DNA of 35,595 nt from an uncultured Bacilli bacterium (GTDB taxonomy: Bacteria; Bacillota_I; Bacilli_A; RF39; UBA660): contig CANPXR010000002.1 of the NCBI GenBank assembly GCA_947586655.1, positions 1 to 35,595 on the forward strand, given 5' to 3'. How positions within the stretch are numbered: position 1 is the stretch's first letter; every line of letters starts with the position of its first letter. The position numbers and the translations under genes are program-made. Below are positions 10,432-35,595 of this stretch, one piece after another. The notes beneath the pieces are model-generated. The model was not told the origin of the DNA, did no database searches, and worked only from the letters and a program-made list of their open reading frames with translations.

Positions 10432-10464
10432 AATAAAAAAAAAGGTATATCAACATACCTTTTT
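10432..10464 (-). terminator. Intra-locus rho-independent terminator + extended -10-like motif
   Basis: Minus strand reads AAAGGTATGTTGATATACCTTT followed by a T9 run, then ATTGTATAATTGG. The stem overlaps the stop codon of 10463-12334. Confidence 0.65.
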
Positions 10465-12334
10465 ACTCAACAAACTCAAGAATTGCATACGAGTCACTTT
10501 TTACTACCTTATACAACTGATTATCTTTTATATCACCATTTATAAATAATTTATTATATTGCTCTATAAATTGTTCATCAATATCAAATAAATAAACATA
10601 GTCATAATCTTTTATTAATTCTTGACGCCATGTATCACTTGTTTTATAAACGGTCCAAATATCTTCTTTAGAATAAGGTACTCCTATACTCCAAGCAAAA
10701 TTTTTATTCATTTTATAAGGCGTCAGTTCGTATTTTGCTATGTAATAATCTATTCCATTATCATTAGTAGATATGAAATATAAATAATCATTTTTCTTTA
10801 TGTACTTTTTAGATTTTTTACGAAACTCTTTATATGGTTCCCTAACATCTTTTGTTATATTAGAGTTTGCGGATGCAAAAACCGTTAAATTTAAAAACGT
10901 ACTAAAGCTAAAGTTTATGGTAAAGAACGCTAATAATAGCATTGTAAACACACCAAGATTTTTTTCATTTGAATGTGTGCAATCAACATAAAGGGCTATT
11001 ACTATGTATAATAATCCAAGCGCATAAGTTCCCATGTACCTAGTAAATGATGCTAGTCTAGCAGCTTCATACTCACTAAATATTGCTAAGTATGCTACTA
11101 ATAGTAAACCCGCGTAAGCTATTGCGCCCAATATACTAAATATAACTAAAACTTTATTAGTATTTTTACTTTCCTTTTTCGTATTTCGAATCAAAAAATA
11201 TCCAATTATGATTGTTATTATTAGAATAGTAACGTAAGATAGCGGAATAAAGGTACTTGTTAAGCTAGTATTAAAGGTAGCATCCGCAAAAGATGTTATA
11301 ACACCAGTTTGATAATCCATAAGGTTTAAAGTTATTAAATTTTTAACCGTGTTAATTATACTAGACCCACTACTTGAGCTATTAACGTTATTTAATGTTA
11401 ACGTAATAATCCAAACTATTTTAATTAAAAGAGCTGGAAGGATAGTTATAAATAACAAATAATTATCCTTTATGATATTTTTAATGTTAAATGTATTTCT
11501 AATAAACATGTTATCAATTAATATGATAGCAAAGGCTATTAGCATTAATACCAATCCAAAATCCTTTATTAAAATAAGCATCGAAAATGAAGCAATTAAA
11601 TTAATTATATCAAACTTATCTAGGCTTTTTTTACGATTAGAAAAATATGAATATAAACTATAGGCAAAAGCTAAACCTAAAACCGCATCAACGTATAACG
11701 TTTGATATACGGTAGGATAAAAGAACGTTGGAAGAAAAAGCAAGATGAAATATAAAACATAACTTAAAAAATTATTTTTCTTTTTGAAAGTTTTAAAGAT
11801 AGGAACAATAAGTGATATTATAATTAAATCCATCCCTACATAAAGCATTGATTCTCTAAATTCTCCGCATAGTTTTGTACAGAAATATTGAAATAAAGAA
11901 GTTCCAGAAAGATAAGTTTTTATCATAACCGTTGAGTCGCTACCCAAACCTAAATTTCCTAATCCATACATGTTTTTTACAACTAAAGCCCAATGCGAAA
12001 ACTCATCCCATGAATTAGCCAATTTACCAAATGACTGCCATACTATAATTAAATAACTAATTATAAATAAGATTAATCCAGTCGTTAAAACATTTTTATT
12101 CAAATCAATTTTTCTTTTAATAAATGAGTATACATTAATTATAAACAAAATCCAATTTAATATTAAAATAGTAATAAATCCAACATTTAATATAGAAAAA
12201 ACACCAAAAACAAACAAAATAAATATATATGAAAATATACTTAAGAATATTGTTTGTTCTATTTTCTTATTAAAAATAGTTGAATAAAATAATGACGTAT
12301 TTAATAATAAAAATATTAATAAAATATATTCCAT
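10463..12334 (-). CDS. Polytopic membrane protein (>10 TM) with C-terminal soluble domain; candidate GT-C-type extracytoplasmic glycosyltransferase; paralog of 20234-22111
   Basis: 623 aa. Shares SLFQYFCTKLCGEFRE (versus QLFQYFCMKILGNFQE in the paralog), the same topology and a C-terminal YDYVYLF-type domain. The family assignment is an inference. Confidence 0.45.
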   Translation of the reverse strand: MEYILLIFLLLNTSLFYSTIFNKKIEQTIFLSIFSYIFILFVFGVFSILNVGFITILILNWILFIINVYSFIKRKIDLNKNVLTTGLILFIISYLIIVWQSFGKLANSWDEFSHWALVVKNMYGLGNLGLGSDSTVMIKTYLSGTSLFQYFCTKLCGEFRESMLYVGMDLIIISLIVPIFKTFKKKNNFLSYVLYFILLFLPTFFYPTVYQTLYVDAVLGLAFAYSLYSYFSNRKKSLDKFDIINLIASFSMLILIKDFGLVLMLIAFAIILIDNMFIRNTFNIKNIIKDNYLLFITILPALLIKIVWIITLTLNNVNSSSSGSSIINTVKNLITLNLMDYQTGVITSFADATFNTSLTSTFIPLSYVTILIITIIIGYFLIRNTKKESKNTNKVLVIFSILGAIAYAGLLLVAYLAIFSEYEAARLASFTRYMGTYALGLLYIVIALYVDCTHSNEKNLGVFTMLLLAFFTINFSFSTFLNLTVFASANSNITKDVREPYKEFRKKSKKYIKKNDYLYFISTNDNGIDYYIAKYELTPYKMNKNFAWSIGVPYSKEDIWTVYKTSDTWRQELIKDYDYVYLFDIDEQFIEQYNKLFINGDIKDNQLYKVVKSDSYAILEFVE

Positions 12335-12335
12335 G

Positions 12336-14153
12336 TTATTTTCCTACCTTATTCTTTATTTTTTTTAATACTTTTTGGACGGTTACCTTAATTCCATTAG
12401 TTTTAAGAGAATAAATAAATAAACTAAACCATCTTAAAGGCTTTGTTATTTTCCATGATTTACTATTCAACATTGCCTGGCAGTTAGGACACGTAACAAA
12501 AGAAGTATTCAAACTTAATTTATTAGAACTACTAAGTTCACTAACAAAATTCACGTAATAACTTGCAAGAATTGCTGTTTCATAATCATACTTTTGTAAC
12601 TCAGGCTCATTTAAGACAAATTTTAAAATTGTCTTCATTCCAATTACCTGCTTTTTAGAATCATATGCTGAACTTTTTTCATTAGAATATACCGTCGATA
12701 ATGGAATATCTATCCCTAATAAGTTTTGATGCATTAAAATAGTAATCCAAAAACAAGTATCTTCTCCAATTACTAACTCTGGGTTAAACCTAAAGTTATT
12801 TTTATTTAAAAATTCTTTTTTTATCATAACCGTTGGGGTTGCAATTTGACAAGACCAAATGAGAGTTGGAATCATGTTACCCGTTTGCTTTCCACTATTA
12901 AATAATACCGTTTTATTAAAACCTTTTCTATAATACGACGTATGACTTACTAAAGATTTTGCTGCCACCATTTTTAAAAGCTGAATTTCTAACTTTTTTG
13001 GTTCAAAAACATCATCAGAGTCTAAAAAAGCAACGTAACTACCAGTAGCATTATCAATTCCTACGTTTCTAGCATTTGCCGCACCTTTATTTGGTTTGAC
13101 ATTTATTAATTTTATTTTTTTATTTTCTTTAGCTATTTTTTTTACTTCAGTAATATCGTCAGTAGAACCATCATTAATAACTAAAATTTCATAATTTTTA
13201 TGAGTTTGCTTTAACACTGATTTAATTGCTCTTATAACAATTTTACTTCTATTATAAAAAGGAATTATTACGGAAACTTTTATATCTTTAATAGAAGGTT
13301 CTATATCCTTTTCTATTTTTTGATACTTTTTCTTGCAGTGTTCTTCTGCAATATGATACGGAGTATCTTTTAAAAATTGTTCCATTTGAAAATAATAATT
13401 ATATTCACTACCCTCTAATTTTATTTTGGTTTTTAATGGTATGTCATCAATCATTTTTATCCAAAAAGAATTCCCTTCCGTTTCAACCCTAGGATTAGTA
13501 TTGCTTACTTGCTTATTATGATACCTAGACTTTGCTAAAACCTTAGGTATATGAATGAAAGAATACCCTTTCTTCATCATTTTATACCACAAATCATAAT
13601 CCTGTGCACACCTTAATGATTCATCAAAATCTCCGCACTCTTCAAAGGCTATTTTAGGAATTAACAAAGTTATACCATTTACCGTACCTCTTAAGAGTGC
13701 GTACTCTGGCTTTTCTTCTAGCATTTTATGGTCTTTTATTGCTTTTGATATTAATTTTCCTTCTACATCTATTAAATCATAATCAGAATATAATATAACT
13801 TTTTTTCCAAGTAATTTATTATCAATCAAGTAATTAATTTCTTCTTCTACTTTTTCAGGATAATATACGTCATCATGACTAAGCCATGAGAAATATTCTC
13901 CATTCATTTCTTTTAAAGCTAAGTTAAGAACCGTTGATACTCCACCATTTTCTTTTTTTATGTACCTTATTTTATTTCCATAAGATTTTGCAATTTTATC
14001 GGTTGCACCATGGTCAGGACTACCATCATTAATTACTAATATTTCTATGTTACTATAAGTTTGATTAAGAGCGCTGTCGATCGCTTCTTTCATGTATTTT
14101 TTACCCTTGTACACAGGAATTATTATTGTTACTTTTGGCTTTTTAATGTTCAC
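12336..14153 (-). CDS. Bifunctional glycosyltransferase with two GT2 domains
   Basis: Domain 1: KVTIIIPVYKGKKYMKEAIDSALNQTYSNIEILVINDGSPD...GEYFSWLSHDDVY. Domain 2: KVSVIIPFYNRSKIVIRAIKSVLKQTHKNYEILVINDGSTDD...AFLDSDDVF. C-terminal tail SKSWKITKPLRWF. Confidence 0.85.
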   Translation of the reverse strand: MNIKKPKVTIIIPVYKGKKYMKEAIDSALNQTYSNIEILVINDGSPDHGATDKIAKSYGNKIRYIKKENGGVSTVLNLALKEMNGEYFSWLSHDDVYYPEKVEEEINYLIDNKLLGKKVILYSDYDLIDVEGKLISKAIKDHKMLEEKPEYALLRGTVNGITLLIPKIAFEECGDFDESLRCAQDYDLWYKMMKKGYSFIHIPKVLAKSRYHNKQVSNTNPRVETEGNSFWIKMIDDIPLKTKIKLEGSEYNYYFQMEQFLKDTPYHIAEEHCKKKYQKIEKDIEPSIKDIKVSVIIPFYNRSKIVIRAIKSVLKQTHKNYEILVINDGSTDDITEVKKIAKENKKIKLINVKPNKGAANARNVGIDNATGSYVAFLDSDDVFEPKKLEIQLLKMVAAKSLVSHTSYYRKGFNKTVLFNSGKQTGNMIPTLIWSCQIATPTVMIKKEFLNKNNFRFNPELVIGEDTCFWITILMHQNLLGIDIPLSTVYSNEKSSAYDSKKQVIGMKTILKFVLNEPELQKYDYETAILASYYVNFVSELSSSNKLSLNTSFVTCPNCQAMLNSKSWKITKPLRWFSLFIYSLKTNGIKVTVQKVLKKIKNKVGK

Positions 14154-18633: not shown

Positions 18634-20232
18634 CTATATTACTTTTTTTAAATCACTATTTTTAATAGGATACAAACATTTTCCGGTAATAATGATTTTT
18701 TCATTTTCACTTTTTAATGGTACTTTTATCCACTCCTTATCTATAAATATATTATTTTTAGGTATACCACTTATATTTTTTACTCTTTTCTTTTTTTGAT
18801 TATTTAATACACAATAAATCCTTAAACTTTTTATTTTATATCCCGCTGAAAAAGATGGACTCCATAACATATAAGATGCGTTTTTAATTAACTCATACTC
18901 ATATCTAAAAGCACCCTTTTTAAATACCCTATTATCAACAAATGATTTAATGAGCTTATCTTTAGAATCCAAAAATTTTATTTCTGGTTTTATACATATA
19001 TGTATCACTTTTTCTTTTGATATTATTTTTTCAAGATTTATCTTTCTTTCTAACTCCTTATAATAATCACTTTTAGGTATGGTTTTTTTCCTGTAAGATA
19101 ATTTCAACAACTTAGAATCACTAGGCAAAAATAAATTTCCACTTATGTTTATTTTTTTTAGTATTTTACCTGGTTTTGTTGGAATGTACATGGTTGGACA
19201 CTCACCATTAAAGAAGAAAGTTCCATCTTTATTTAAAAATGAACCAAAAGCTAAGCCTAAATCAATTATTTCATTACTTTTATCTTTATAAGTAACACTT
19301 ACTTCTAAATTATTTATCGCAAAGCCCCACAAAATAGAAGGTTCCCAGCAAATTACGTCTCTTGCTCCAGTTACTTCATAAGTTTGTGAAAAATTACCTG
19401 GTTTAAATTTTTTATCATACAATTTATAAGATGAGCCTTTATGTTCTAACTCATAATTAGCTATTATAGCAGATTCCATTTCAAACGATGATATTATAGA
19501 TTGAGAAAGAGCACGCTCCCACTCATTATAAAATCCTCTTTTTGAAAAATCAAACTTTATGTTATTATCGTCAAAAATCTCTTTGGTTGCTTTCAACCAT
19601 TTTCCAGAGAACAAACCGTACTTCGTAAGGTCATAAGGAAATATTTGCGATTGATCATTTAGCATTATATAAAATTCGTCTTTTTTATATAACGTATTAC
19701 TTCGCTTAGTAGCATTAATTTCCCATTCCCAAATGTTTTCCTTGTAACCTTCGGTGTATTTTAACAACTGTTTTTTATTCCAAATTCCCGCTATGGCAGC
19801 TACTTTAGAATTAGAAACCGAAGACCTTTTCGCAAAGCCATCGTACATACAATTTTTAGAATCTGAGTATACTGGCCAAAACGTAAATGTAGCTATTTTT
19901 TCATCTTGTTTTAACCAATTTAAACAATCATTAATTTTATTAGAATTAACATAATCATAAAGGAAAAAATCATCTAACATTAAAATAACATAATCAGAAC
20001 TGATTTTTTTAAGAACGTCCGTTATACGTTCGGTCCAGGAACAATTAGGATTATCGGGATGAATATTTTTAATTTTAAAATATTTATTTTTATAATTTGT
20101 TGATTCTGTACTTAAGACTATATCATAAGGTAAGTCTTTCCAATATTTATTAAGCAACTTAAAAAATGGTTCTAATATATCAACATAAGAATCACAACTA
20201 TTTATTAGTAACGTACAAGAATTGCTAGCCAT
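18634..20232 (-). CDS. Unknown protein: GT-A-like N-terminal domain (DDF motif) + internally duplicated C-terminal beta-rich domain
   Basis: 532 aa with LLINSCDSYVDILEPFF...YVILMLDDFFLY. Two C-terminal segments share a pattern: Y.V.....V.CWEPS...GF.I..L.V.V versus YEYEL....YMLWSPSFSAGYKIKSLRIYCV. I recognise no family. Confidence 0.3.
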   Translation of the reverse strand: MASNSCTLLINSCDSYVDILEPFFKLLNKYWKDLPYDIVLSTESTNYKNKYFKIKNIHPDNPNCSWTERITDVLKKISSDYVILMLDDFFLYDYVNSNKINDCLNWLKQDEKIATFTFWPVYSDSKNCMYDGFAKRSSVSNSKVAAIAGIWNKKQLLKYTEGYKENIWEWEINATKRSNTLYKKDEFYIMLNDQSQIFPYDLTKYGLFSGKWLKATKEIFDDNNIKFDFSKRGFYNEWERALSQSIISSFEMESAIIANYELEHKGSSYKLYDKKFKPGNFSQTYEVTGARDVICWEPSILWGFAINNLEVSVTYKDKSNEIIDLGLAFGSFLNKDGTFFFNGECPTMYIPTKPGKILKKINISGNLFLPSDSKLLKLSYRKKTIPKSDYYKELERKINLEKIISKEKVIHICIKPEIKFLDSKDKLIKSFVDNRVFKKGAFRYEYELIKNASYMLWSPSFSAGYKIKSLRIYCVLNNQKKKRVKNISGIPKNNIFIDKEWIKVPLKSENEKIIITGKCLYPIKNSDLKKVI

Positions 20233-20233
20233 T

Positions 20234-22111
20234 TTATAACTCCTTCAGAATTATTTTATTTTCGCCTATGATTTCATATAGTGTTTCTTCTTTAATAGTA
20301 GTATCAAAAGCACTTTCTAAAAAAGTTTTCATTTTATCATCGTAGTTATAGACAAAAACATAATCATAATTTTCTTTTAATAAATATTTTACGAATTCTT
20401 CTTTATCCTGATAATTATTTACACTACCAAAGTAATTTTTAATTTTAATGTTATTATCTATAAGTAAATTATACAATCTATGATGCATAATAGGAAAATC
20501 TTCATAAGTAGCAAAAAATATATTAACCCCGTCTTTAGAAGGTTTAACTTTTGATAATATTTTTTTCTCATCTTTCATAGTCTCATTTAGTATTTTTTTA
20601 TTATAGTCATAAGAATAGTCGTTACCCTGCAACAGAGTTGAGTCTCCAATGCTTCTAAAAGGAATAAAAACTATAATTGATACTAAAACAATGGCTAATT
20701 TCATAAACTTTTTATCATGCTTTAATACGTTTTCAATAATTACCAAACCCAAGAACATAAAAATTGCTAAAAGGGTTGTGTTATTATAACGTTCAAAACA
20801 CAATACGTCACCATACTTTAAGGCATACAAAAATATAAGAGCAAACCAATAAGCAAAACTTGAACCAATTATTCCTACGGACGGAAACAAATATTTCAAG
20901 CGCTGTTTTTTAGAAGACAAAATAATTATCACAATTGCCGTTAGAACATAAAATAAAATAATATTTATATATGTTAGATATTTATTTATTTCTATTATGC
21001 TGGAGCCAACCATACTCCTAGTGTAAGAAGTGTATAAGTCATCTTTAATAATTCTTTTCTGTTCATCAGTTGGTTTAGTAATTAACTGAGTCATTTTACT
21101 AGGAGTAAACACGGAAGAAACACTACCAGCTTTATCATAAGTTCTTAAGCTTAAGCTCCAACTAAACATTAAAAACAATAAAAATATTATCGGAATAACT
21201 ATGAGTTTATAATTTTTTATCTTTCGATAGTCTTTATTTTTATAATAAAGTATTTCCGTTACGATGGAAACAAATATAGAAATCAAGCAAAAAATTATTC
21301 CGTTTTCTTTTAATAAATATACTAATGCTATTGATAATAAATAATTAATTAAATTAAATTTATTTTTATATGGATTCTTTGTTAATAAATAAAAATTATA
21401 TCCAATTGCTAAACCTAAAATAGAATCTACATATAAACTTTTATAATAAAAACCCCAATCAAGTCCGTTATTATAAAATATCATCGGTGTAAAAATAACA
21501 AATATCATGTATGGGATAATAACATAAAAATTTTTCCATTTTATATTTTTTAATAAAGGTAAAAATAATACGGCTCCTAATAAGCAAAAGGAAAAATGCA
21601 AATAATTTTCTTGAAAATTTCCCAAGATTTTCATACAAAAGTACTGAAATAGTTGAATTCCTGGTAAATATGTATCCATTCCTTTAATAGCGTATAATAA
21701 AGTGTCATTACCAAATTGAATATTATCAGTGTAATACAATGCTTTAGGATATGCACCCCATAGCCTTAATTCGTCAAATAAATATAATAAGGAATCTTTT
21801 GTTAAATACCATATTATTAAATATAATAATGTAAAGCATAAAGCTCCAGGAGTAATTAATCTTTTTAAGGCTTCTTTAACGTTCTTTTTCCTTACTAAAT
21901 AGAATGCTGATGTAGCATAGAGTAAAAAAGATATAAAAAGAGCTAAAAATAATCCTATTTTTAAAAGGTCAATAATATAAAATAAATATAAAAAGAATAT
22001 AACTCCTAAGAAATATAAGGGAATACCTTCTTCAAAATTTTTATCTAAAACACAGGCGCAAAAAACTCCAAAGGATGAAAGAACTATAAATAAAAGTATA
22101 AAACCTAACAT
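20234..22111 (-). CDS. Polytopic membrane protein, paralog of 10463-12334 (candidate GT-C-type transferase)
   Basis: 625 aa with >10 hydrophobic helices, the QLFQYFCMKILGNFQE block and a C-terminal soluble domain ending ..NYDYVFVYNYDD... Confidence 0.45.
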   Translation of the reverse strand: MLGFILLFIVLSSFGVFCACVLDKNFEEGIPLYFLGVIFFLYLFYIIDLLKIGLFLALFISFLLYATSAFYLVRKKNVKEALKRLITPGALCFTLLYLIIWYLTKDSLLYLFDELRLWGAYPKALYYTDNIQFGNDTLLYAIKGMDTYLPGIQLFQYFCMKILGNFQENYLHFSFCLLGAVLFLPLLKNIKWKNFYVIIPYMIFVIFTPMIFYNNGLDWGFYYKSLYVDSILGLAIGYNFYLLTKNPYKNKFNLINYLLSIALVYLLKENGIIFCLISIFVSIVTEILYYKNKDYRKIKNYKLIVIPIIFLLFLMFSWSLSLRTYDKAGSVSSVFTPSKMTQLITKPTDEQKRIIKDDLYTSYTRSMVGSSIIEINKYLTYINIILFYVLTAIVIIILSSKKQRLKYLFPSVGIIGSSFAYWFALIFLYALKYGDVLCFERYNNTTLLAIFMFLGLVIIENVLKHDKKFMKLAIVLVSIIVFIPFRSIGDSTLLQGNDYSYDYNKKILNETMKDEKKILSKVKPSKDGVNIFFATYEDFPIMHHRLYNLLIDNNIKIKNYFGSVNNYQDKEEFVKYLLKENYDYVFVYNYDDKMKTFLESAFDTTIKEETLYEIIGENKIILKEL

Positions 22112-28333: not shown

Positions 28334-29512
28334 ATGATAACATATACTTCCGTAAAGGAGAATATAAGTAAGATGACTCAAATAAATCAGAAAATTGTTG
28401 ATATGATTATGCAGAAAAAAACAATTGAAGAAATATCACAGGAATTAAATTTAAGTTATAAGCAAATCTTTAATAGAGTTTCTTTTTTAGAAAATTATGG
28501 ATATGTTGTAAAAAGGAAGTATAATACTAATGGTATTATATCTTATACACTAGGTAATGATAACTGTTATCATTTGGATAATTTATTTGAATTACAAAAT
28601 AATAATAATACTTTTAAAATAATAGTAATTTCAGATTTACACCTGGGAAATATAATAAGTGATGAAGAAGCACTAAATACAATTTTTGACTATTGCAGTA
28701 AAAATTCAATTCACGTAATTATAAACTGTGGAGACATAATAGATGGGGTTTTTTCTAGCACACAGTGTATTATACCTCCAGAAGAACAAGTAGAATACTT
28801 GATAAAAAGGTATCCTTTTGATAAAAATATTTTTACTTTGTATACTCTTGGTGATCATGATAATTCATTATATACAAGTAAAAAAATTTCTCTTACTTAT
28901 GCATTAAAAAGAAGAAGGCATGACATATGCTCTATTTCTCCTTATGCTACGCCAACGCAAAACTACGTTATAAAGTTAAATAATAATCATATTATGGTTT
29001 CTCATCAAGCATCGATTTTTGAAGAAAATAACCTACAAAACATAAAATTACATTTAGTAGGACATAATCACACCTCTAAAACATTATTAGAAATTAATAA
29101 TTCAAGAAATACGACGCCAAGAATATATGTACCACCGCTTTGCAAAGCAAGTAATAGTGGGCAAATAAATACACCAAGGGCTTTAGAACTTACTATATAC
29201 ACGGACGAAAAATTTAATTTTAAGCATATTTCAAAAAAAGACTTGATTATTTTAGAAAATATGGTTTTAAATACAGGAGAAACAATAATAAATTATAGCA
29301 AAAATGAATTAAATCCTTTCGATTTAGATAATAGGAAGCACTACGTTGATGATAAAGTAAATCCTAAAAATATGTCAGAAAAAAAAGAAATTGGTGATCT
29401 AAATGATGAACAAAGGCAAAAATTAAAAGATTTCTTTAAAGGTAGCGAAAGCTCTAAAAAATTAGAGAGCATGATAAAAAAAGCAAGGAAAGGAAAACAT
29501 AAATGGCAATAA
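28334..29512 (+). CDS. Winged-HTH + calcineurin-like metallophosphoesterase fusion with Lys-rich C-terminal tail
   Basis: N-terminal ..IVDMIMQKKTIEEISQELNLSYKQIFNRVSFLENYGYVVKR (wHTH). MPE motifs are intact: ISDLHLGN, CGDIIDG, LGDHDN, VGHNHT. The true start may be the internal MTQINQK. Confidence 0.7.
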   Translation: MITYTSVKENISKMTQINQKIVDMIMQKKTIEEISQELNLSYKQIFNRVSFLENYGYVVKRKYNTNGIISYTLGNDNCYHLDNLFELQNNNNTFKIIVISDLHLGNIISDEEALNTIFDYCSKNSIHVIINCGDIIDGVFSSTQCIIPPEEQVEYLIKRYPFDKNIFTLYTLGDHDNSLYTSKKISLTYALKRRRHDICSISPYATPTQNYVIKLNNNHIMVSHQASIFEENNLQNIKLHLVGHNHTSKTLLEINNSRNTTPRIYVPPLCKASNSGQINTPRALELTIYTDEKFNFKHISKKDLIILENMVLNTGETIINYSKNELNPFDLDNRKHYVDDKVNPKNMSEKKEIGDLNDEQRQKLKDFFKGSESSKKLESMIKKARKGKHKWQ

Positions 29513-29552
29513 AAAAAGCAAATCACTCCAATTTGAAGTGGTTTGTTTTTTT
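29512..29552. terminator. Bidirectional terminator between convergent genes
   Basis: AAAAAAAG-CAAATCAC-tccaatttgaa-GTGGTTTG-TTTTTTTAT: an 8-bp stem with one G.U, with an A-run on one side and a T-run on the other. Confidence 0.7.
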
Positions 29553-30666
29553 ATATTACTATAGCTATCATGTTATTAGAACCTTTATTAACAACCTTAG
29601 TTAAGGTGGTTTGCAGTTTATGCCTTATATTGTCTGGCATAAGTGATAATTTACCCCTTATACCTTCTTGTACGATTACGTCTAGACTTCTTCCAAACAT
29701 CTCACTTTTCCATACGCTATCCGGGTCCGTATCATAATTTTTCATCAAATTATCGATAAGTTCCTTACTTTGTGTTTCAGAACCAATAATAGGTTCAAAC
29801 GTTGACTCAACGTCTACTCTTATCATATGAATAGAAGGGGCGACAGCCTTTAATTTAACACCATACCTCGTTCCTTGTTTTATTATCTCTGGAGTATCTA
29901 ATTTCATGTCTTTAATGGTTGGAAATGAAGTCCCATATCCTGTTTGTTTTACCATTTTTAAGGCTTCCTTAAACTGTCCATACTCTTCTTTGGTTTCGTT
30001 AAATTCTTGGAATAAGGAAATTAGTTTTGCTTTAGAATCTATATTAGTTCCAATTATTTCATTTAATACATCATTATACAATCCATCTGGAGCTTCTAAG
30101 TTAATTGTTATTTCTCCAGTTGCGGTATTAACCTCAGATAAATAAGCCTTCGATATGTGTTCTGTTCCTTGGAAATGTCCAATTATGGTGTCAACGTCCC
30201 TTACTTTATCCACGTCAATAACGCTTTCTTTTATCTTCTCAACATATTCCTTTTTTAAATAATGTTTATGAGATAAACAAGCTATCCAATCTGGCATTTT
30301 AACGTTTACGCTTAAAACTGGGAACTCAAATAATGCTTCTTTTAATATGTTATATATTTCTTTTTCACTCATTGCCTCGACACTAACTGGTATTACCGGA
30401 ACATTGTGTTCGGTTCTTAAACTCTCTGCTAATTTTTCCGTATCAGGATGATTAGGATGAACAGAGTTTAAAACAACTATAAATGGTTTACCTATTTCCT
30501 TTAATTCACTTATTACCTGATTTTCAGCTTGAACGTAGTCTTTTCTTTCAATTTCTCCAATACTACCATCGGTAGTAACCACAATACCAATCGTAGAATG
30601 ATCCCTAATTACCTTTTCAGTTCCTATTTCCGCTGCTTCAACAAAAGGAATTTCCTCATCATACCA
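29551..30666 (-). pseudogene. spoIVA: spoIVA 3' segment only (about codons 122-492): gene split by an inserted element
   Basis: The frame reads WYDEEIPFVEAAEIGTEKVIRDHSTIGIVVTTDGSIGEIERKDY...KLKAVAPSIHMIRVDVES...VVNKGSNNMIAIVI*, colinear with SpoIVA from the TPWY(E/D)E motif to the C-terminus. Upstream of the Trp codon the frame is unrelated (..KNRSY) and hits a stop 27 codons up. No Walker A segment (GxxRTGKST) occurs anywhere in the window. The track's GTG 'start' at 30582 is an internal Val. Confidence 0.9.
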
Positions 30667-30672
30667 GTATGA
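30659..30672. repeat. Putative hybrid attachment site (attL/attR) of the serine recombinase
   Basis: TCATAC-CA-GTATGA: perfect 6-bp inverted arms around a non-palindromic central dinucleotide. The centre (30665-30666) falls in the Trp codon, where SpoIVA homology ends. Confidence 0.6.
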
Positions 30673-30698
30673 CCTGTTTTTGTGATACCTAATTTTAT

Positions 30699-30721
30699 TT
30701 TTAAAAATTGCTTGGAAGCAA
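30699..30721 (-). terminator. Terminator after the recombinase gene, before the att junction
   Basis: Minus strand reads TTGCTTCCAAGCAA + TTTTTAAAAATAAAATT. The stem is short. Confidence 0.45.
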
Positions 30722-30734
30722 CTCGTATTTTTAC

Positions 30735-32321
30735 CTATATTAATACTTCACTTTTTTTAATTCTATAATGAATTTCTAGTTTTTTATCTTTCGTTACATA
30801 TATTTTATCTATTAATCTATTCATGATTTCTCTTGTTGGATTTTTCATATCTAGAAAACTTTTAATAATATCTAAATATTCTACATAACAAGAAGAATCA
30901 TCATTAATACTAGATATTTCATTTTGTAATTGTTCTAGTTTATCTTTTGCAGTTTTAATATCTTCTTCAGTAGCATTAAATAATCTTTGATAAGTTTCTA
31001 CACTTATAACATTATTAAATTTATCATCATATAAAGAGTCTTGTTTTCTTTTTAAATCATTTATTGTATGATTTAATTCTTCTATCTTTTTTAGTTTATC
31101 TGCTTTTGGATCAACATATTGGCTTTTAATAATATTTTCAAATTCTTCTTTATCATTAATATATTGATTAGCCATAGTACTTAACTTGTCATAGACTGTG
31201 TTTTCTAGTTTTGTATAGTTAATATAGTGAGAAAAGCATATATCATACTTACTAAACTTACGATAGTTATTACAATTCATTGTGACTCTATCTCTTTTCT
31301 TATCATAACTAATACTCATTCTAGCACCACAATCTTTACAAAATACTAAATCAGATAAAACATAATCAACATTTCTTCGTTCAGGATTATAATTATTTGA
31401 TGAATCTTTAATAGATTGTGCGATTTCAAATGTTTTCCTATCTACAAGTGGTTCGTGTGCATTTTCTTTAATACACCATTCACTTTCAGGAACACTTTTT
31501 CTTTTCTTAATCTTATAATTCACTTTTTGAAATCTGTGTTGAATTAAATCTCCAATATAAACTCTATTTTTGATGATATTACTGACAGATGTGTGTTTCC
31601 ATATTTCAGGATGGTCAAATCTATTTAATTTTGAATCAGAGTATTTATACATAACTGGTGTAGGTAATTCTTCTCTTGTTAGTATTTCAGCAATTTGTGA
31701 GCTACCATAACCTGCAACATATAAATCAAAAATTCTTTTTACTACAGGAGCAGTTTCTGGATCAGGTACTAGTTTGTGTTTGTCTAAAGGATCTCTCATA
31801 TAACCATAAGGTGCAGAACTTCCACAAAACTTTCCATCTTTTTTCATTTGAAGTAAGTTTGAACGAACTTTTTTAGAAATATCTTTTGCATACATATCAT
31901 TCATACTTAATCTAAATGGCATCATATCAGAGCCACTTGTTTCAAAAAAAGTATCTATATCATCGTTTACGGCAACATATCTAACATCGTTTTCTGGGAA
32001 AAATGTTTCAACATAATAACCAGTCATTATATGGTCACGACCTAATCTTGATAAATCTTTAGTAATAACCATGTTTATTTTTCCATTTTCAATGTCATTT
32101 AACATTCTCTTAAACTCTGGGCGTTCAAAATTTGTTCCTGTATAACCATCATCTACATAAATATCAACTGCAACTAATCCTTGTGCTTTTAAATAACCAA
32201 TTAATAAACTTCTTTGATTAGTGACACTTTCTGATTCCATATCATCACCATCTTCACGAGATAGTCTTATATAAATGGCTATTTTAAAAATCGTATTGTC
32301 TATTGCATACCTACTATACAT
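30735..32321 (-). CDS. Large serine recombinase (SpoIVCA/SprA/TnpX class)
   Basis: 528 aa. The resolvase catalytic domain has IAIYIRLSREDGD..SESVTNQR and VITKDLSRLGRD. There is a recombinase domain, a zinc ribbon (CKDCGARMS...NCNNYRK....CFSH) and a C-terminal coiled coil (KLKKIEELNHTINDLKRKQDSL). The SD GAAAGGAG lies inside the end of the upstream small ORF. Confidence 0.92.
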   Translation of the reverse strand: MYSRYAIDNTIFKIAIYIRLSREDGDDMESESVTNQRSLLIGYLKAQGLVAVDIYVDDGYTGTNFERPEFKRMLNDIENGKINMVITKDLSRLGRDHIMTGYYVETFFPENDVRYVAVNDDIDTFFETSGSDMMPFRLSMNDMYAKDISKKVRSNLLQMKKDGKFCGSSAPYGYMRDPLDKHKLVPDPETAPVVKRIFDLYVAGYGSSQIAEILTREELPTPVMYKYSDSKLNRFDHPEIWKHTSVSNIIKNRVYIGDLIQHRFQKVNYKIKKRKSVPESEWCIKENAHEPLVDRKTFEIAQSIKDSSNNYNPERRNVDYVLSDLVFCKDCGARMSISYDKKRDRVTMNCNNYRKFSKYDICFSHYINYTKLENTVYDKLSTMANQYINDKEEFENIIKSQYVDPKADKLKKIEELNHTINDLKRKQDSLYDDKFNNVISVETYQRLFNATEEDIKTAKDKLEQLQNEISSINDDSSCYVEYLDIIKSFLDMKNPTREIMNRLIDKIYVTKDKKLEIHYRIKKSEVLI

Positions 32322-32324
32322 TTT

Positions 32325-32507
32325 TTATCTCCTTTCAGTAGACAACACATTCACTTTATTAGTTGAATTAATTATACTATTTTTTGCGTTCGATTTAAAT
32401 ACTTTTGATGAATTTTTATAAGCCATATAATATTTATATATACAACTTTTTAAGACTTCTTTTAAATCACAACCATTACTATCATAAAATTCTAGTGTTT
32501 CATACAT
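32325..32507 (-). CDS. 60-aa protein translationally linked to the recombinase; candidate accessory/directionality factor
   Basis: GGAGGA SD 7 nt upstream of the ATG. Its stop codon lies 1 nt before the recombinase ATG, and its last codons (GAA AGG AGA TAA) form the recombinase SD. No family recognised. Confidence 0.4.
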   Translation of the reverse strand: MYETLEFYDSNGCDLKEVLKSCIYKYYMAYKNSSKVFKSNAKNSIINSTNKVNVLSTERR

Positions 32508-32582
32508 GATTATTCCTCCACAATGAATTTTATGTGTAATAGTTTATAAAAATTACTATTCTTCATAAATTATCACACCTTT

Positions 32583-33002
32583 CTATTGATATTCTTTTAG
32601 CATATCTTCCATTTCTTTAAGTTCTTCTTCAGTGGGTGGAATTGCTTCACATCTTTTTCCATCCCAAACTTCAACACCGTCTGAATCAAGTCTTATATGA
32701 GGACCTTTTCTTCCGTTCATCATTTCATCTTTATTGTCTGATATATCAGTCACAGTAATAAAACTTTGTATTCTTTCATTTGTAATATAAGAATTAAGAT
32801 AACCTTTAACAAAAACTCTTGTTCCTTTAACAAAAAAATCTTTATATATTTCATAAAGATTTCGGTTAATATTAAAACTAGCATAAACTTTCCTTTTATC
32901 ATATTTAAGAGTGGTTAAACCAAACTTAATATAATCTTTATTATTATCTGTCACATTATTAATAGTTCCAGATATTATAATTTCGTTTAAATCAATTTCC
33001 AT
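32583..33002 (-). CDS. OB-fold single-stranded-DNA-binding-like protein with acidic C-terminal tail
   Basis: 139 aa. LNEIIISGTINNV...KFGLTT....KVYASFNI.R.LYEIYKDFFVKGTRVFVKGYL has the pattern of SSB beta-strands. The tail reads PTEEELKEMEDMLKEYQ, and there is no canonical DDDIPF. Confidence 0.4.
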   Translation of the reverse strand: MEIDLNEIIISGTINNVTDNNKDYIKFGLTTLKYDKRKVYASFNINRNLYEIYKDFFVKGTRVFVKGYLNSYITNERIQSFITVTDISDNKDEMMNGRKGPHIRLDSDGVEVWDGKRCEAIPPTEEELKEMEDMLKEYQ

Positions 33003-33152
33003 TTTTATAACTTCCTTTCTTTTTAATCTTTTTAAAGATTTAAATTATTAAAATAATTTTAAATTTATATTATCTATTAATATTATTTATTATATTATTT
33101 ATTCTGTTAGAAGATACTTGCTATACTCACTAGCAGTATCTTGCTATTACAT

Positions 33153-33434
33153 CTAGCAGAAATCTGCTAAATAGATTCTTCTTATATTAGGTTCATTTTC
33201 AACTCTAATATATTTTTTTGTTCTTAATGATGTTATGCAACTAGTAATCGTTCTTTTAGATACTTTTAAAAGATTACTTAAATACTTATTACTTGCATAA
33301 CAAAATCCCTCTTGCATAGATAGGGTATTAATTAAACCCATTAATAGTTTAGTAGTAGAAGATAGTTCTTCATCTAATAAAACTATTGTAGGCACCTCTA
33401 TATGCTTTAATTTAGTAATATCGCTATTATTCAT
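33153..33434 (-). CDS. Small winged-HTH protein (phage/plasmid regulator or replication-organiser-like)
   Basis: ..FCYASNKYLSNLLKVSKRTITSCITSLRTKKYIRV... I set the start at MNNSDI (GGAAAGGAG 9 nt upstream), because the track's TTG start overlaps a terminator T-run. Paralog-like to 33722-33988. Confidence 0.5.
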   Translation of the reverse strand: MNNSDITKLKHIEVPTIVLLDEELSSTTKLLMGLINTLSMQEGFCYASNKYLSNLLKVSKRTITSCITSLRTKKYIRVENEPNIRRIYLADFC

Positions 33435-33465
33435 ATTATCAATCTCCTTTCCTTTAAATTTAGGC

Positions 33466-33497
33466 AATAAAAAAACTTGTAAACACTACTTACAAGT
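33466..33497 (-). terminator. Rho-independent terminator/attenuator inside the leftward operon
   Basis: Minus strand reads ACTTGTAA-GTAGTGT-TTACAAGT + TTTTTTATTG, sitting immediately upstream of the SD of 33153-33434. Confidence 0.6.
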
Positions 33498-33554
33498 CAT
33501 ACTAATAATGACAATAAAATCCCTGTGTGAGATAAATCTCACTAAATAGGTTGC

Positions 33555-33631
33555 TTGAAGTAAAACATACATAACATATTTCAATCCCTTTTATTCTTTT
33601 ATTTCGTTCTTTGAAATATGTTTTACTTCAA
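33555..33631. repeat. Long interrupted inverted repeat (12 + 9 bp arms, 9-nt bulge, 26-nt loop)
   Basis: TTGAAGTAAAAC[ATACATAAC]ATATTTCAA - 26 nt - TTGAAATATGTTTTACTTCAA. A second perfect palindrome, GTGAGAT-AA-ATCTCAC, lies nearby at ~33524-33539. Confidence 0.7.
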
Positions 33632-33721
33632 ACTAGTTCATCTTATATTTCTATAAGATAGGTTCTAATATAAATCTACGAACATTTACTGAACCTTTAT
33701 TTGTTAGTGATTTAATCTTTT

Positions 33722-33988
33722 CTAACAAATCTCGTATGTGTATAATCCTCGGTCGTATTCATTGAACCTTATATATTTGTTATCTTCTAATATTTTTAGG
33801 TTCTTCTTGAATCCAACATTTGTTATACTCAATTTCTTTTGAACTCTCCCGATACTTATACTTGTGAATTCACATCTTTGGGATTGTTCCGCACAGAGTA
33901 TTTTGTATATCAGCTTCGTTTCAAACTTGATATTTTTATCTCTCCATACTCTTGGATCAATTAATTCTAGTTGTTTTTTTAATCTCAT
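33722..33988 (-). CDS. Small winged-HTH protein, first gene of the leftward operon
   Basis: 88 aa with ..FTSISIGRVQKKLSITNVGFKKNLKILEDNKYIRF.., the same layout as 33153-33434 (..KYIR..). AAGGAGG SD upstream. Confidence 0.45.
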   Translation of the reverse strand: MRLKKQLELIDPRVWRDKNIKFETKLIYKILCAEQSQRCEFTSISIGRVQKKLSITNVGFKKNLKILEDNKYIRFNEYDRGLYTYEIC

Positions 33989-34018
33989 ACATTTGATTTC
34001 CTCCTTTCTTTTTCTATG

Positions 34019-34149
34019 TTACCCATTTAATTTAAAAGTGGGTTCATTTGGAAACATATTTAATATATCATGCTAATTACTATATTGTCAACACTTTTTT
34101 ACCCATTTATTGAAATTATGTTGACTTTTTTACCCACTGGGTGTATTAT
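34019..34149. promoter_or_regulatory. Divergent promoter/operator region (lysogeny-switch-like)
   Basis: Rightward promoter: TTGACT (34121) - 17 nt - TATTAT (34144), then GAGGTGA SD and the ATG at 34171. Leftward promoter: TTGACA (34091-34086) - 18 nt - TATATT. The repeated ACCCA/TGGGT motif occurs as TTACCCATTTAA (34019), AAGTGGGT (34036-43), TTACCCATTTAT (34099) and the palindrome ACCCA-C-TGGGT (34132-34142), which lies inside the rightward promoter spacer. Confidence 0.65.
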
Positions 34150-34170
34150 TATGGTGTGAGGTGAATTTCT

Positions 34171-34674
34171 ATGCTAGAAAAAAATATCGGCGAAGTTATT
34201 GCTGAAGCTAGAGAAAAGAAAGGTTTATCGCAAAGACAACTTGCGAAACTTGCAAAGATTAATAACTCTGAACTTTCTAAAATAGAATCAGGTATAAGAA
34301 AAGATCCTAGTCCTAAAATATTAAGAAAGATAAGTAATATAATAGATGTTAATTATAGTGACTTAATGTATATGATAGGTTTAGGATTAGAAGTGACACA
34401 ACTTAATTATTTTGTTAAGAGTCATTATGCTAGTTTAAATCTAGAACAATTAGATACTGCTGAAATAAATGTTTTAGGAAGTATAGAAAATTCTGAAAGT
34501 ATAGTTTCTACATGTAAAAAAGAATTAGAAAAAGATGATTTACCAGAAGAACAAAAAGAGTTATTAATACATACTATCGAAGATCATACATATCAAATTA
34601 ATTCATCAAAAGAAATAATCAAACTTATTCAAAGTTTAAAAGTAAAGGGGAGAAATAAAAATGCTAAAAAGTAA
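34171..34674 (+). CDS. XRE-family HTH repressor-like protein with non-peptidase C-terminal domain
   Basis: IGEVIAEAREKKGLSQRQLAKLAKINNSELSKIESGIRKDPSPKILRKIS is a classic HTH_3. The C-terminal ~95 aa are helical with no S24 Ser/Lys motif visible. Confidence 0.85.
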   Translation: MLEKNIGEVIAEAREKKGLSQRQLAKLAKINNSELSKIESGIRKDPSPKILRKISNIIDVNYSDLMYMIGLGLEVTQLNYFVKSHYASLNLEQLDTAEINVLGSIENSESIVSTCKKELEKDDLPEEQKELLIHTIEDHTYQINSSKEIIKLIQSLKVKGRNKNAKK

Positions 34675-35089
34675 TATAATTAAAAAATTATTAGTAGTAG
34701 TGAATTTTATTGTAGGATTATTTTTAATACTAACTATCATATTTAATAATAAACTTACTTATTCTTTATATTGGATTTTAATTCCTATTTTAATATTTTT
34801 AATTGTAATGTTTATATATGAGGTAGATAAAGGGTTAATTGAAATAAATCAAAACGAGGGCAAGTCAATTAGAAGATCATATAATGATATAACAGTTGTA
34901 TCTACTGTATTCTATGGATTAATATATTTAGGAATAGAGTTTATTGATATGATAAATAGTGATGTTAGAAATAATATTTATTTAGTATGTGGTTTCTTTG
35001 CAATTACACTTTTATATGAATTATTTGTATTCATGGCAATTAAGAGTGCTAAAAAAGAAACATCGGAATTACTAAATAAGAAAAAATAA
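34661..35089 (+). CDS. Small 4-TM membrane protein co-transcribed with the repressor
   Basis: 142 aa with four hydrophobic segments. It overlaps the XRE gene by 14 nt. A branched hairpin + T-run at ~35139-35187 follows. Confidence 0.5.
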   Translation: MLKSNIIKKLLVVVNFIVGLFLILTIIFNNKLTYSLYWILIPILIFLIVMFIYEVDKGLIEINQNEGKSIRRSYNDITVVSTVFYGLIYLGIEFIDMINSDVRNNIYLVCGFFAITLLYELFVFMAIKSAKKETSELLNKKK

Positions 35090-35278
35090 ATTTATGAAGT
35101 AAATTTATAATCCTTACTTTTGCATAGCAAAAGAAAAAAATAACCTTTTACCCTTTCGTTAGATTAGGTATTAGGTTATTTTTATTTAAAGAATACGTGG
35201 CACGTTTTGTTGCTTTAGCAATGAAAGTGGCGATAGTATTCTTTCTTTTTTATGTAGTCGCAAGACAAAATAAAAAAG

Positions 35279-35458
35279 AGCAACATTCACTTACGATAGT
35301 TTGTGAAATGTTGCTTATTGGGTTTCAAAAGGGTGTCCCTTTGCACACTATTCCTAGTTGGCAAAATGCCGACTTGGTAGTGTGTTACTATCTTGTCTTA
35401 AAGATAGTCTTTCACGAAAATCCATTAGTTATGTAATTTCTTTTGGATTTTCGTTTTC
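35279..35458 (+). ncRNA. Candidate structured RNA (five consecutive hairpins, last one terminator-like); class unknown
   Basis: The hairpins are: AGCAACATTCAC/GTGAAATGTTGCT (35279-35315); AAAGGG-TGT-CCCTTT (35328-35342); CACACTA..CCTAGTTGGC-AAAAT-GCCGACTTGG-TAGTGTG (35344-35384); ACTATCT/AGATAGT (35387-35408); and CGAAAATCCA/TGGATTTTCG + TTTTC (35415-35458). The region is locally more G+C-rich than its flanks. Confidence 0.35.
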
Positions 35459-35595
35459 AATAGGTTTTGATTTTTATATTTAATTTATTCAGAATATCTT
35501 AATATTACGATTTAATCGATAAATTGTAATTTGTACTAATAATTTTCTTTGTTTATTATACTTAATAAAGAATAAAAAGTCATTAATAAACCACT

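Follow-up and report, generated by a model that had tools for sequence, protein, structure and literature searches.

An integrative mobilizable element of a resistance-carrying family interrupts spoIVA in an RF39-order gut bacterium and is a candidate for excision during sporulation

The DNA under study, hereafter the window, comprises the 35,595 nucleotides of contig CANPXR010000002.1 (GenBank assembly GCA_947586655.1), assigned to an uncultured Bacilli bacterium of the RF39 lineage. The sporulation gene spoIVA of this window is split inside codon 121 by an element encoding a large serine recombinase (LSR). Among the LSR-mediated gene-intervening elements, a known class, it represents a new family with a new target. 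A programmed excision of the element from spoIVA in the mother cell is favoured, with a probability of about 0.55, which makes spoIVA a candidate for a gene that has to be rebuilt by DNA excision before spore formation.

The minus-strand frame at positions 29551-30666 contains 371 open codons and a stop, starts at the Trp codon of TPW|YDEE and covers residues 122-492 of SpoIVA only. Membership in the family was assessed with TIGR02836 and with PF09547, PF20438 and PF20439. Pfam analysis of the frame returned positions 122-237 of the 237 positions of the SpoIVA_ATPase profile, followed by complete SpoIVA_middle and SpoIVA_C domains, and the NCBIfam model TIGR02836 (spore_IV_A) gave 491.6 bits against a cut-off of 459.9, restricted to model positions 122-492 of 492. 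When full-length SpoIVA was compared by tblastn with the whole window, residues 121-489 only were matched, and residues 1-120, including the Walker A part, were not found. The reading frame switches character precisely at the TGG of the Trp121 codon. In sister loci (numbered L001, L002 and so on), the Walker A motif is carried by a separate 5' fragment, as with GAVRTGKST in L004. The LSR gene (30735-32321, minus strand, 528 aa) is co-oriented with spoIVA and its ORF (open reading frame) ends 68 nt from the junction. The initial annotation of this DNA, made from the letters alone, had proposed the 371-codon SpoIVA frame, the lack of the ~120 N-terminal codons with Walker A, and a 528-aa recombinase in the same orientation beside the break. 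All of this was borne out by the model positions, the tblastn search and the domains described below, as was the proximity of the recombinase; only its distance, given as 65 bp, has to be corrected. An assembly chimera was considered and rejected, because 77 independent loci, some on contigs of 0.4-1.4 Mb, show an identical junction in genomes and metagenomes alike.

The 528-aa protein was identified as an LSR because it displays Resolvase (PF00239, 1.4e-21), Recombinase (PF07508, 4.4e-25) and zinc-ribbon (Zn_ribbon_recom, PF13408, 4.1e-11) domains. It shows the catalytic motif YIRLSRED, with Ser21 assigned by family alignment, and matches the integrase PHROG 95 with an E-value of 2e-107. Its best sequence matches in the PDB were TnpX (3e-27) and then SprA/YokA (6e-23); the best NCBIfam match was XisF, with 112 bits far below the cut-off of 375. 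The remaining ~5 kb had been described as phage-like, a description that did not hold, since the PHROGs matches were limited to the integrase, a repressor-type helix-turn-helix (HTH) protein and a replication-initiator-like HTH protein. A prophage was rejected, as no megablast match was obtained in 50,697 phage records and no structural PHROGs were present. Complete 10.2-kb copies of the element contain no capsid, tail, terminase or lysis genes. Together with a relaxase found in sister copies, the PHROGs results replace the skin-like (prophage-like) nature first suggested by that of an integrative mobilizable element (IME).

By exact-sequence look-up, the identical LSR protein was listed in 3182 blocks of an assembly collection, mostly from gut metagenomes; the SpoIVA 3' fragment follows the LSR in 10/10 loci returned, and the host flanks differ. 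The whole element, 10,166 bp in length, is present in L004 on a 1.37-Mb contig. There, the SpoIVA 5' fragment (126 aa) is followed by a 327-aa ORF, a Mob_Pre relaxase, small regulators and cargo, the backbone as in the window, the LSR and the SpoIVA 3' fragment. The relaxase (430 aa, MobV-type) was found in L001-L004 and L008-L010, and belongs to the end of the element that lies outside the window. Window positions 30667-35595 share 4.8-4.9 kb with the backbones of L001-L012 at 99.5-100% nucleotide identity. The point at which this identity ceases differs among the variants and ranges from 35212 to 35595, within the segment where the element variants diverge (start of the variable cargo, 35090-35595). 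The stop of the contig at the window end is explained by the identity ending where the variable cargo begins. By sequence comparison, the window is the right-hand 4.9 kb of a ~10-kb IME in spoIVA. The combination by which IMEs are recognised, an integration module and a relaxase without a conjugation apparatus, was found in the sister copies sharing the backbone of the window.

Several copies carry resistance genes. A vanG-like D-Ala-D-Ser cluster was seen in L005:1-6740 (sensor kinase, VanW, D-Ala-D-Ala ligase family, VanY, acyltransferase and alanine racemase), a tet ribosomal-protection-type protein in L010:4854-6776, with tet also in L012, and APH plus an acetyltransferase in L003:4459-5665. 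A P-type ATPase is carried by L001, L006 and L009, and insertion sequence elements by several copies. As far as these gene contents indicate, uncultured RF39 bacteria share one resistance-gene vehicle. Relaxase-less mini-elements of 3.3-4.2 kb were identified in L021, L022, L031, L032 and L042, containing one cargo gene, the small ORF described below and the LSR. The cargo gene appears to be a Fic-like ORF, by reading of the sequence, or an AAA-type ATPase.

A scan for the LSR with one genome per species gave 80 loci. All LSRs of 53-100% identity with enough 3' flank directly abut spoIVA from residue ~121, and none of those of 40-44% identity is joined to spoIVA. An independent and unbiased exact-pattern scan of JGI metagenomes for the right end of the element gave 33 matches, 33/33 being joined to W(Y/F)x(E/D)..PF.EAAEIGT. 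In total, 77/77 right ends, in 59 distinct host alleles, are joined to one and the same dinucleotide, the TG of the Trp121 codon (TPW|Y). Target choice is absolute within this LSR clade.

In the window, attR (30640-30689, minus strand) is composed of the arm GGTATCAC-N15, the TG at 30666-30665 and the host B' arm, with TCATAC-TG-GTATGA palindromic about the core. Comparison of attL and attR gave attP as GGTATCAC-N15-TG-N15-GTGATACC, with inverted outer arms, and attB as ..GGTTAAAACTCCA-TG-GTATGATGAAGAAATACC... The predicted attB junction string contains ACTCCATGGTATGATGAA, and the predicted attP junction string is GGTATCACAAAAACAGGTCATACTGGGTGTTGTTGAATAAGTGATACC. The TG was taken as the central crossover dinucleotide because the arms are symmetric around it, and the crossover predicted at this dinucleotide by the initial annotation agrees with the position of the junction in the 77 loci. 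The sites are ~50 bp long, with imperfect inverted arms about a 2-bp crossover, which is the geometry of LSR sites. The distance between the core and the outer motif is 19 nt in attP (ATACC) and 14 nt in attB (ATwCC), an offset of 5 bp. Such an offset is reportedly the signature of LSR attP versus attB half-sites in structural work on LI integrase.

The 5' fragment was found at the far end of the element in ten loci (L004, L011, L022, L031-34 and L042-44). Removal of the 10,166 bp of L004 at the TG gave a 489-aa SpoIVA with GAVRTGKST, and overall 9/10 in-silico joins, with element lengths of 3,507-11,102 bp, produced an intact SpoIVA of 489-492 aa reading ..TPWY... The join of L044 reads TPWWY, the attR coordinate used for this locus being off. 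Both features expected at the outset, a Walker A segment at the other element end and one ORF of ~490 aa after joining at the TG, were thereby observed in sister loci such as L004 and L011. In the window's own strain, six contigs, 99.9% identical, each break inside the element before any 5' fragment. The rebuilt proteins of L004 and L011 are letter-identical to natural intact SpoIVA present on at least 1000 and 209 contigs, respectively, so that the insertion must have been conservative and recent. Host dS exceeds 1, compared with ~0.48 for the element, and this difference, together with the identity of rebuilt proteins to extant alleles, also points to recent insertions. According to these comparisons, the insertion is precise, recent and polymorphic.

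Split alleles are very numerous, because ~70 of the best 120 database matches to the SpoIVA N-terminus are fragments of 121-130 aa ending in TPW and a short element-encoded tail (for instance VMLNK, VRLNK, VLLNK or EVP). N-terminal fragments with tails like VSLNMWYP were considered as possible excision scars; this was rejected, as they are left-end variants without a stop codon. About 70 of the fetched 3' fragments are full-length, the exceptions being L102, possibly decayed, and two very-low-coverage contigs. In L102:2773-3189, the spoIVA 3' fragment shows three frame changes and can be aligned as far as residue ~260, which may reflect decay of the copy or poor assembly. At the right ends of the 92%- and 85%-type elements (L014:3148-3213, L027, L021:3357-3419), the last ~70 nt are in frame with spoIVA and have an ATG start, giving MIHCLIAIFKNIKGYHENRSYW fused to the 3' fragment. 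This in-frame extension accounts for 'SpoIVA' gene calls of 390-392 aa. The MIHCLIAIFKNIKGYHENRSYW peptide weakly resembles SpoIVA residues 97-121 (I.C....KNAKGY). For the 92%-type elements, a right-end duplication of residues 93-121 was considered and rejected, the likeness being no more than a faint in-frame resemblance within the attP arm.

The closest intact SpoIVA proteins (491 aa) share 91-92% identity with the fragment of the window and include that of Candidatus Aphodocola excrementigallinarum. Candidatus Aphodocola corresponds to GTDB CAG-594, family CAG-433, order RF39 (PMC8035907). This similarity places the host among the gut bacteria of order RF39, as a relative of genus CAG-594 / Candidatus Aphodocola. 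Only metagenome-assembled genomes (MAGs) were matched in the LSR genome scan, mostly labelled uncultured Tenericutes, Mollicutes or Bacilli; the few other bin labels probably reflect mis-binning. From their genomes, RF39 have been predicted to include both sporulating and non-sporulating species (PMC10868615). Alleles at least 93% identical to the SpoIVA fragment of the window are all interrupted. The ratio of nonsynonymous to synonymous substitution rates (dN/dS) of host spoIVA is 0.03-0.07, a strong purifying selection from which it follows that these lineages need spoIVA.

An ORF of 54-64 aa is located directly upstream of the LSR gene in every locus of the spoIVA clade that covers the region (L001-L044), and is absent from the loci with LSRs of 40-44% identity. 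In the window, it codes for 60 aa (32325-32507, minus strand), ends 3 nt upstream of the LSR gene and contains the core EFYDxNGxDLKEVLKSCIYKYY. Its family comprises 249 database clusters, all unannotated and without a Pfam domain, and no sequence similarity to solved proteins, including recombination directionality factors (RDFs), was found. The AlphaFold 2 (AF2) model shows one confident helix (residues 15-37) and is too simple for a meaningful fold search. From its position and co-inheritance, we infer that the small ORF encodes the cognate RDF of the LSR. The dN/dS of the LSR is 0.10-0.19 within the clade, also between relaxase-less mini-elements, which indicates purifying selection on the LSR throughout the clade. 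The conserved small ORF and the LSR make up the recombination unit.

Ahead of the LSR gene, the 3' tail of the small ORF contains a sigma-A-like promoter, TTTAAA-N17-TATAAT (32371-32399, minus strand), which was assigned by consensus match only. The TATAAT before the LSR is conserved in the group of 84-100% LSR identity and [AG]TATAAT in the 65-70% groups, and this sequence is a plausible constitutive LSR promoter. Upstream of the small ORF, a sigma-E-like motif, TAATTTT-N14-CATAAAAT (32527-32555, minus strand), is followed by GGAGG and the ATG. In 12 host spoIVA genes, kmATAww-N13/14-CATAnnnT, the classical sigma-E pattern, was found at the expected distance; sigma-E dependence of spoIVA in this host is deduced from these motifs and from B. 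subtilis. The motif before the small ORF is similar to the spoIVA promoters of the hosts themselves, and all diverged element groups retain its CATA box. This sigma-E-like match is suggestive only. The LSR and the small ORF have the same orientation as spoIVA, so that transcription running on from the spoIVA promoter could be another trigger, above all in the mini-elements.

In the proposed mechanism, the LSR would be produced constitutively from the sigma-A-type promoter inside the small ORF, whose product would turn the LSR from an integrase into an excisionase. For transfer, the small ORF would be switched on by read-through from the upstream operon once a CI-like switch is de-repressed; the CI-like repressor and the adjacent divergent region (33989-34674) probably control this activation. 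In the mother cell, it would be expressed from a sigma-E-type promoter of its own, by read-through from the spoIVA promoter, which has the same orientation, or by both. In this terminally differentiated cell, spoIVA would thereby be restored, and the forespore genome would retain the element. This logic would be that of SprA/SprB and CD1231/CD1234, here in an element that is not a phage and at a new gene. Excision in the mother cell is plausible by analogy, by the weak promoter match and by conservation of the LSR in relaxase-less derivatives. The previously tested elements of this kind, in sigK, spsM, spoVFB, spoVR, gerE and yabG, all excise in sporulation (PMC4191935, PMC5595907, PMC10747680).

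In favour of programmed excision are these precedents, the strong constraint on host spoIVA, the promoter resemblance, the long-term fidelity of the whole clade to one codon and the retention of the excision module in relaxase-less mini-elements. A number of observations weigh against it, several of which suit another explanation, a plain insertional inactivation. According to the latter, the conserved spoIVA stretch would serve as a broad-host-range landing pad, the element would leave only for transfer under the CI-like switch, carrier cells would be asporogenous, and the element would persist by being mobilized frequently and not by any benefit to host fitness. The IME life style as such fits programmed excision poorly. 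The relaxase, the resistance cargo and the backbones of 99.5-100% nucleotide identity in very different hosts, whose SpoIVA differ by 25-45%, point to intense horizontal spread. In both the L004 and the L011 species, the empty site is the majority allele, and the insertion is there a recent polymorphism and not a fixed developmental feature. The 3' fragment of L102 looks frameshifted and truncated, the one apparently decayed copy. When JGI metagenome contigs and IMG/VR were scanned for the exact pattern of the attP (circular) junction, none was found; 33 integrated copies in the same JGI metagenomes served as positive control, and rare circles could escape assemblies. RF39 also includes lineages losing sporulation (PMC10868615). 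The sigma-E-like motif has lost its conserved -35 half in the group of 65-70% LSR identity, and in DNA of 26% GC it is not statistically distinctive, the window containing 30 such motifs versus 25 +/- 5 expected; with a stricter pattern, 1 was found versus 0.64 expected. The use of intact spoIVA halves or of dN/dS as proof of selection after insertion was rejected, these being uninformative for recent insertions. Insertional inactivation is nevertheless judged unlikely. With a spoIVA dN/dS as low as that of the hosts, a family of elements whose single site inactivates the gene would be counter-selected, yet the site is kept down to 53% LSR identity. The 3.3-4.2-kb relaxase-less elements keep a constrained LSR, the small ORF and both spoIVA halves intact, and ~70 fetched 3' fragments are full-length.

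A different possibility is that the recombinase alone excises the element stochastically, as in Tn4451/TnpX. A few vegetative cells would then regain spoIVA, making sporulation phase-variable or a form of bet-hedging, and the small ORF would have another role. The closest solved relative of the LSR by sequence is TnpX, the catalytic domain of which gave the best match, and TnpX works without a directionality factor; both points also speak against programmed excision. The combination of an LSR with a Mob_Pre relaxase is that of Tn4451, and the LSR has its own sigma-A-like promoter. On the other hand, the strict single site and the 5-bp-shifted asymmetry of attP and attB are typical of directional integrases and not of TnpX-type transposases, the small ORF is co-inherited with the LSR and is most simply its cognate directionality factor, and no attP was seen among the 33 metagenome copies. 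Stochastic excision is considered improbable, more so than inactivation. Programmed excision in the mother cell remains the favoured explanation. A fuller version of it, to which slightly less than even odds are given, would have spoIVA developmentally rearranged in some RF39. The IME would leave at no host cost in the doomed mother cell, a sigma-E-type promoter or spoIVA read-through would time a new family of ~60-aa RDFs, and spoIVA would be a recurrent hot spot used by at least two recombinase lineages at two codons, some genomes needing two excisions.

A second insertion hot spot of spoIVA was observed at SIH|MI(K/R)VDVES (codon ~403). In L008:12440-19700, an unrelated LSR of 546 aa, 29% identical to that of the window, precedes the last 91 aa, and spoIVA is in three pieces. 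L010 and L012 (~12480-12520) carry a different element at codon ~403, with a Type ISP restriction enzyme. Separately, an LSR subclade 40-41% identical to the LSR of the window (L068, L072, L077, L081, L083, L087, L088 and L089) is followed directly on the 3' side by a LysM-repeat gene (YIKIVSGDSLW...), and the junction falls where a repeat begins. NCBIfam matches of this gene include the SafA/ExsA and SpoVID LysM models, and also many cell-wall hydrolases, and the gene is a possible further sporulation target.

As anticipated in the initial annotation, a full-text literature search found no description of spoIVA as an insertion target. Recent papers on intervening elements list only sigK, spsM, spoVFB, gerE and yabG, with vrin in spoVR reported earlier, and Galperin's surveys mention split sigK only. 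The present element resembles skin/SpoIVCA in sigK of B. subtilis and skinCd of C. difficile in having an LSR beside the att site, an insertion within a mother-cell gene and a precise join that restores the ORF. In skinCd, a small RDF (CD1234, partner of CD1231) is under sigma-E control (PMC5025042). Unlike skin and skinCd, the present element targets spoIVA and not sigK, is not a prophage, carries a relaxase and resistance cargo, and has spread horizontally across many species. The constitutive LSR and the small RDF with two inputs proposed here resemble SprA/SprB of SPbeta in spsM, in which the RDF inputs are element induction and sporulation sigma factors (PMC4191935, PMC5499854). SPbeta, however, is an active phage of 134 kb and spsM a late, non-essential gene. 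The gin element in gerE of B. cereus ATCC 10987 is likewise a non-prophage gene-intervening element with a serine recombinase, and is excised in sporulation (PMC5595907). It differs by its 28.6 kb, its three recombinases, the lack of a described mobilization module, its target and its host lineage. LSR-bearing interruption of a conserved sporulation gene is also common to yin in yabG of C. botulinum V73, whose excision as a circle was shown (PMC10747680), and to vfbin in spoVFB and vrin in spoVR, as cited in PMC4191935. Whereas yin is known from one strain only, spoIVA elements occur in dozens of species and thousands of assemblies.

With Tn4451/Tn4453 (TnpX and TnpZ), the element shares a large serine recombinase, a Mob/Pre-family relaxase, resistance cargo and a distribution in low-GC anaerobes. 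TnpX has ~700 aa, many targets with a GA core and no RDF. In contrast, the spoIVA element has one site, a TG core (77/77 loci) and a conserved accessory ORF, and in target and core does not fit the Tn4451 family. XisF of the fdxN element in Anabaena heterocysts is similarly an LSR acting in terminally differentiated cells, where it cuts an intervening element out of a gene, but it is cyanobacterial and part of another developmental programme, and the LSR of the window lies outside the XisF equivalog. In its non-phage, resistance-carrying and horizontally spreading character, the element is closest to gin and Tn4451.

The rest of the element arm was mapped upstream of the small ORF. A 139-aa backbone ORF (32583-33002, minus strand), present in L001-L012 and truncated in L042, gave no match in Pfam, PHROGs or NCBIfam. 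It is preceded by an HTH_36 protein of 93-104 aa (33153-33467, minus strand), similar to the N-terminal HTH of replication initiators, and by an 88-aa ORF (33722-33988, minus strand), the first gene of the leftward operon, without a family match. On the other side of a divergent control region (33989-34170), the plus strand encodes a Cro/CI-type HTH_3 repressor-like protein of 167 aa (34171-34674), identified with Pfam and PHROGs, and a co-transcribed 142-aa hydrophobic protein (34661-35089) without a family match. The control region has promoters on both strands, TTGACA-N18-TATATT with TG (34091 to 34062, minus strand) and TTGACT-N17-TATTAT (34121-34149, plus strand), and three (A/G)TGGGTAA repeats (repeat family D15), which are putative operators. 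Between the 88-aa ORF and the gene of the CI-like repressor, these repeats alternate with the two divergent promoters of TTGACA type, so that positions 33989-34170 look like a phage-style genetic switch within a non-phage element. The repeat search of the window revealed nothing beyond these operator-like repeats, and the Rfam scan of the window no RNA family.

On the host side, the gene convergent with spoIVA (28334-29512, plus strand) encodes 392 aa, with an HTH-like region at the N-terminus and a domain of the calcineurin-like phosphoesterases; in other hosts, the usual downstream neighbour of spoIVA is hbs (HU), as in B. subtilis. Positions 1-27 kb of the window are an ordinary host polysaccharide-synthesis cluster, with three large ORFs (625, 532 and 623 aa; 18634-22111 and 10463-12334, minus strand) without a Pfam match.

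To our knowledge, SpoIVA is the sole coat-morphogenetic protein universal among endospore formers. If the proposed excision is true, programmed DNA rearrangement reaches beyond the genes of sigma factors and of the late coat to the foundation of coat and cortex assembly, and beyond cultured Bacillus and Clostridium to a gut lineage that is uncultured and has a reduced genome. In annotations, a split spoIVA appears as two or three genes that are short or labelled "hypothetical", which can mislead MAG-based predictions of sporulation capacity. A site-specific LSR with att sites of ~50 bp and a candidate small RDF may be useful for genome engineering. Human and animal gut metagenomes contain abundant members of the element family, whose van-, tet- and aph-type cargo bears on the flow of resistance among spore-forming commensals.

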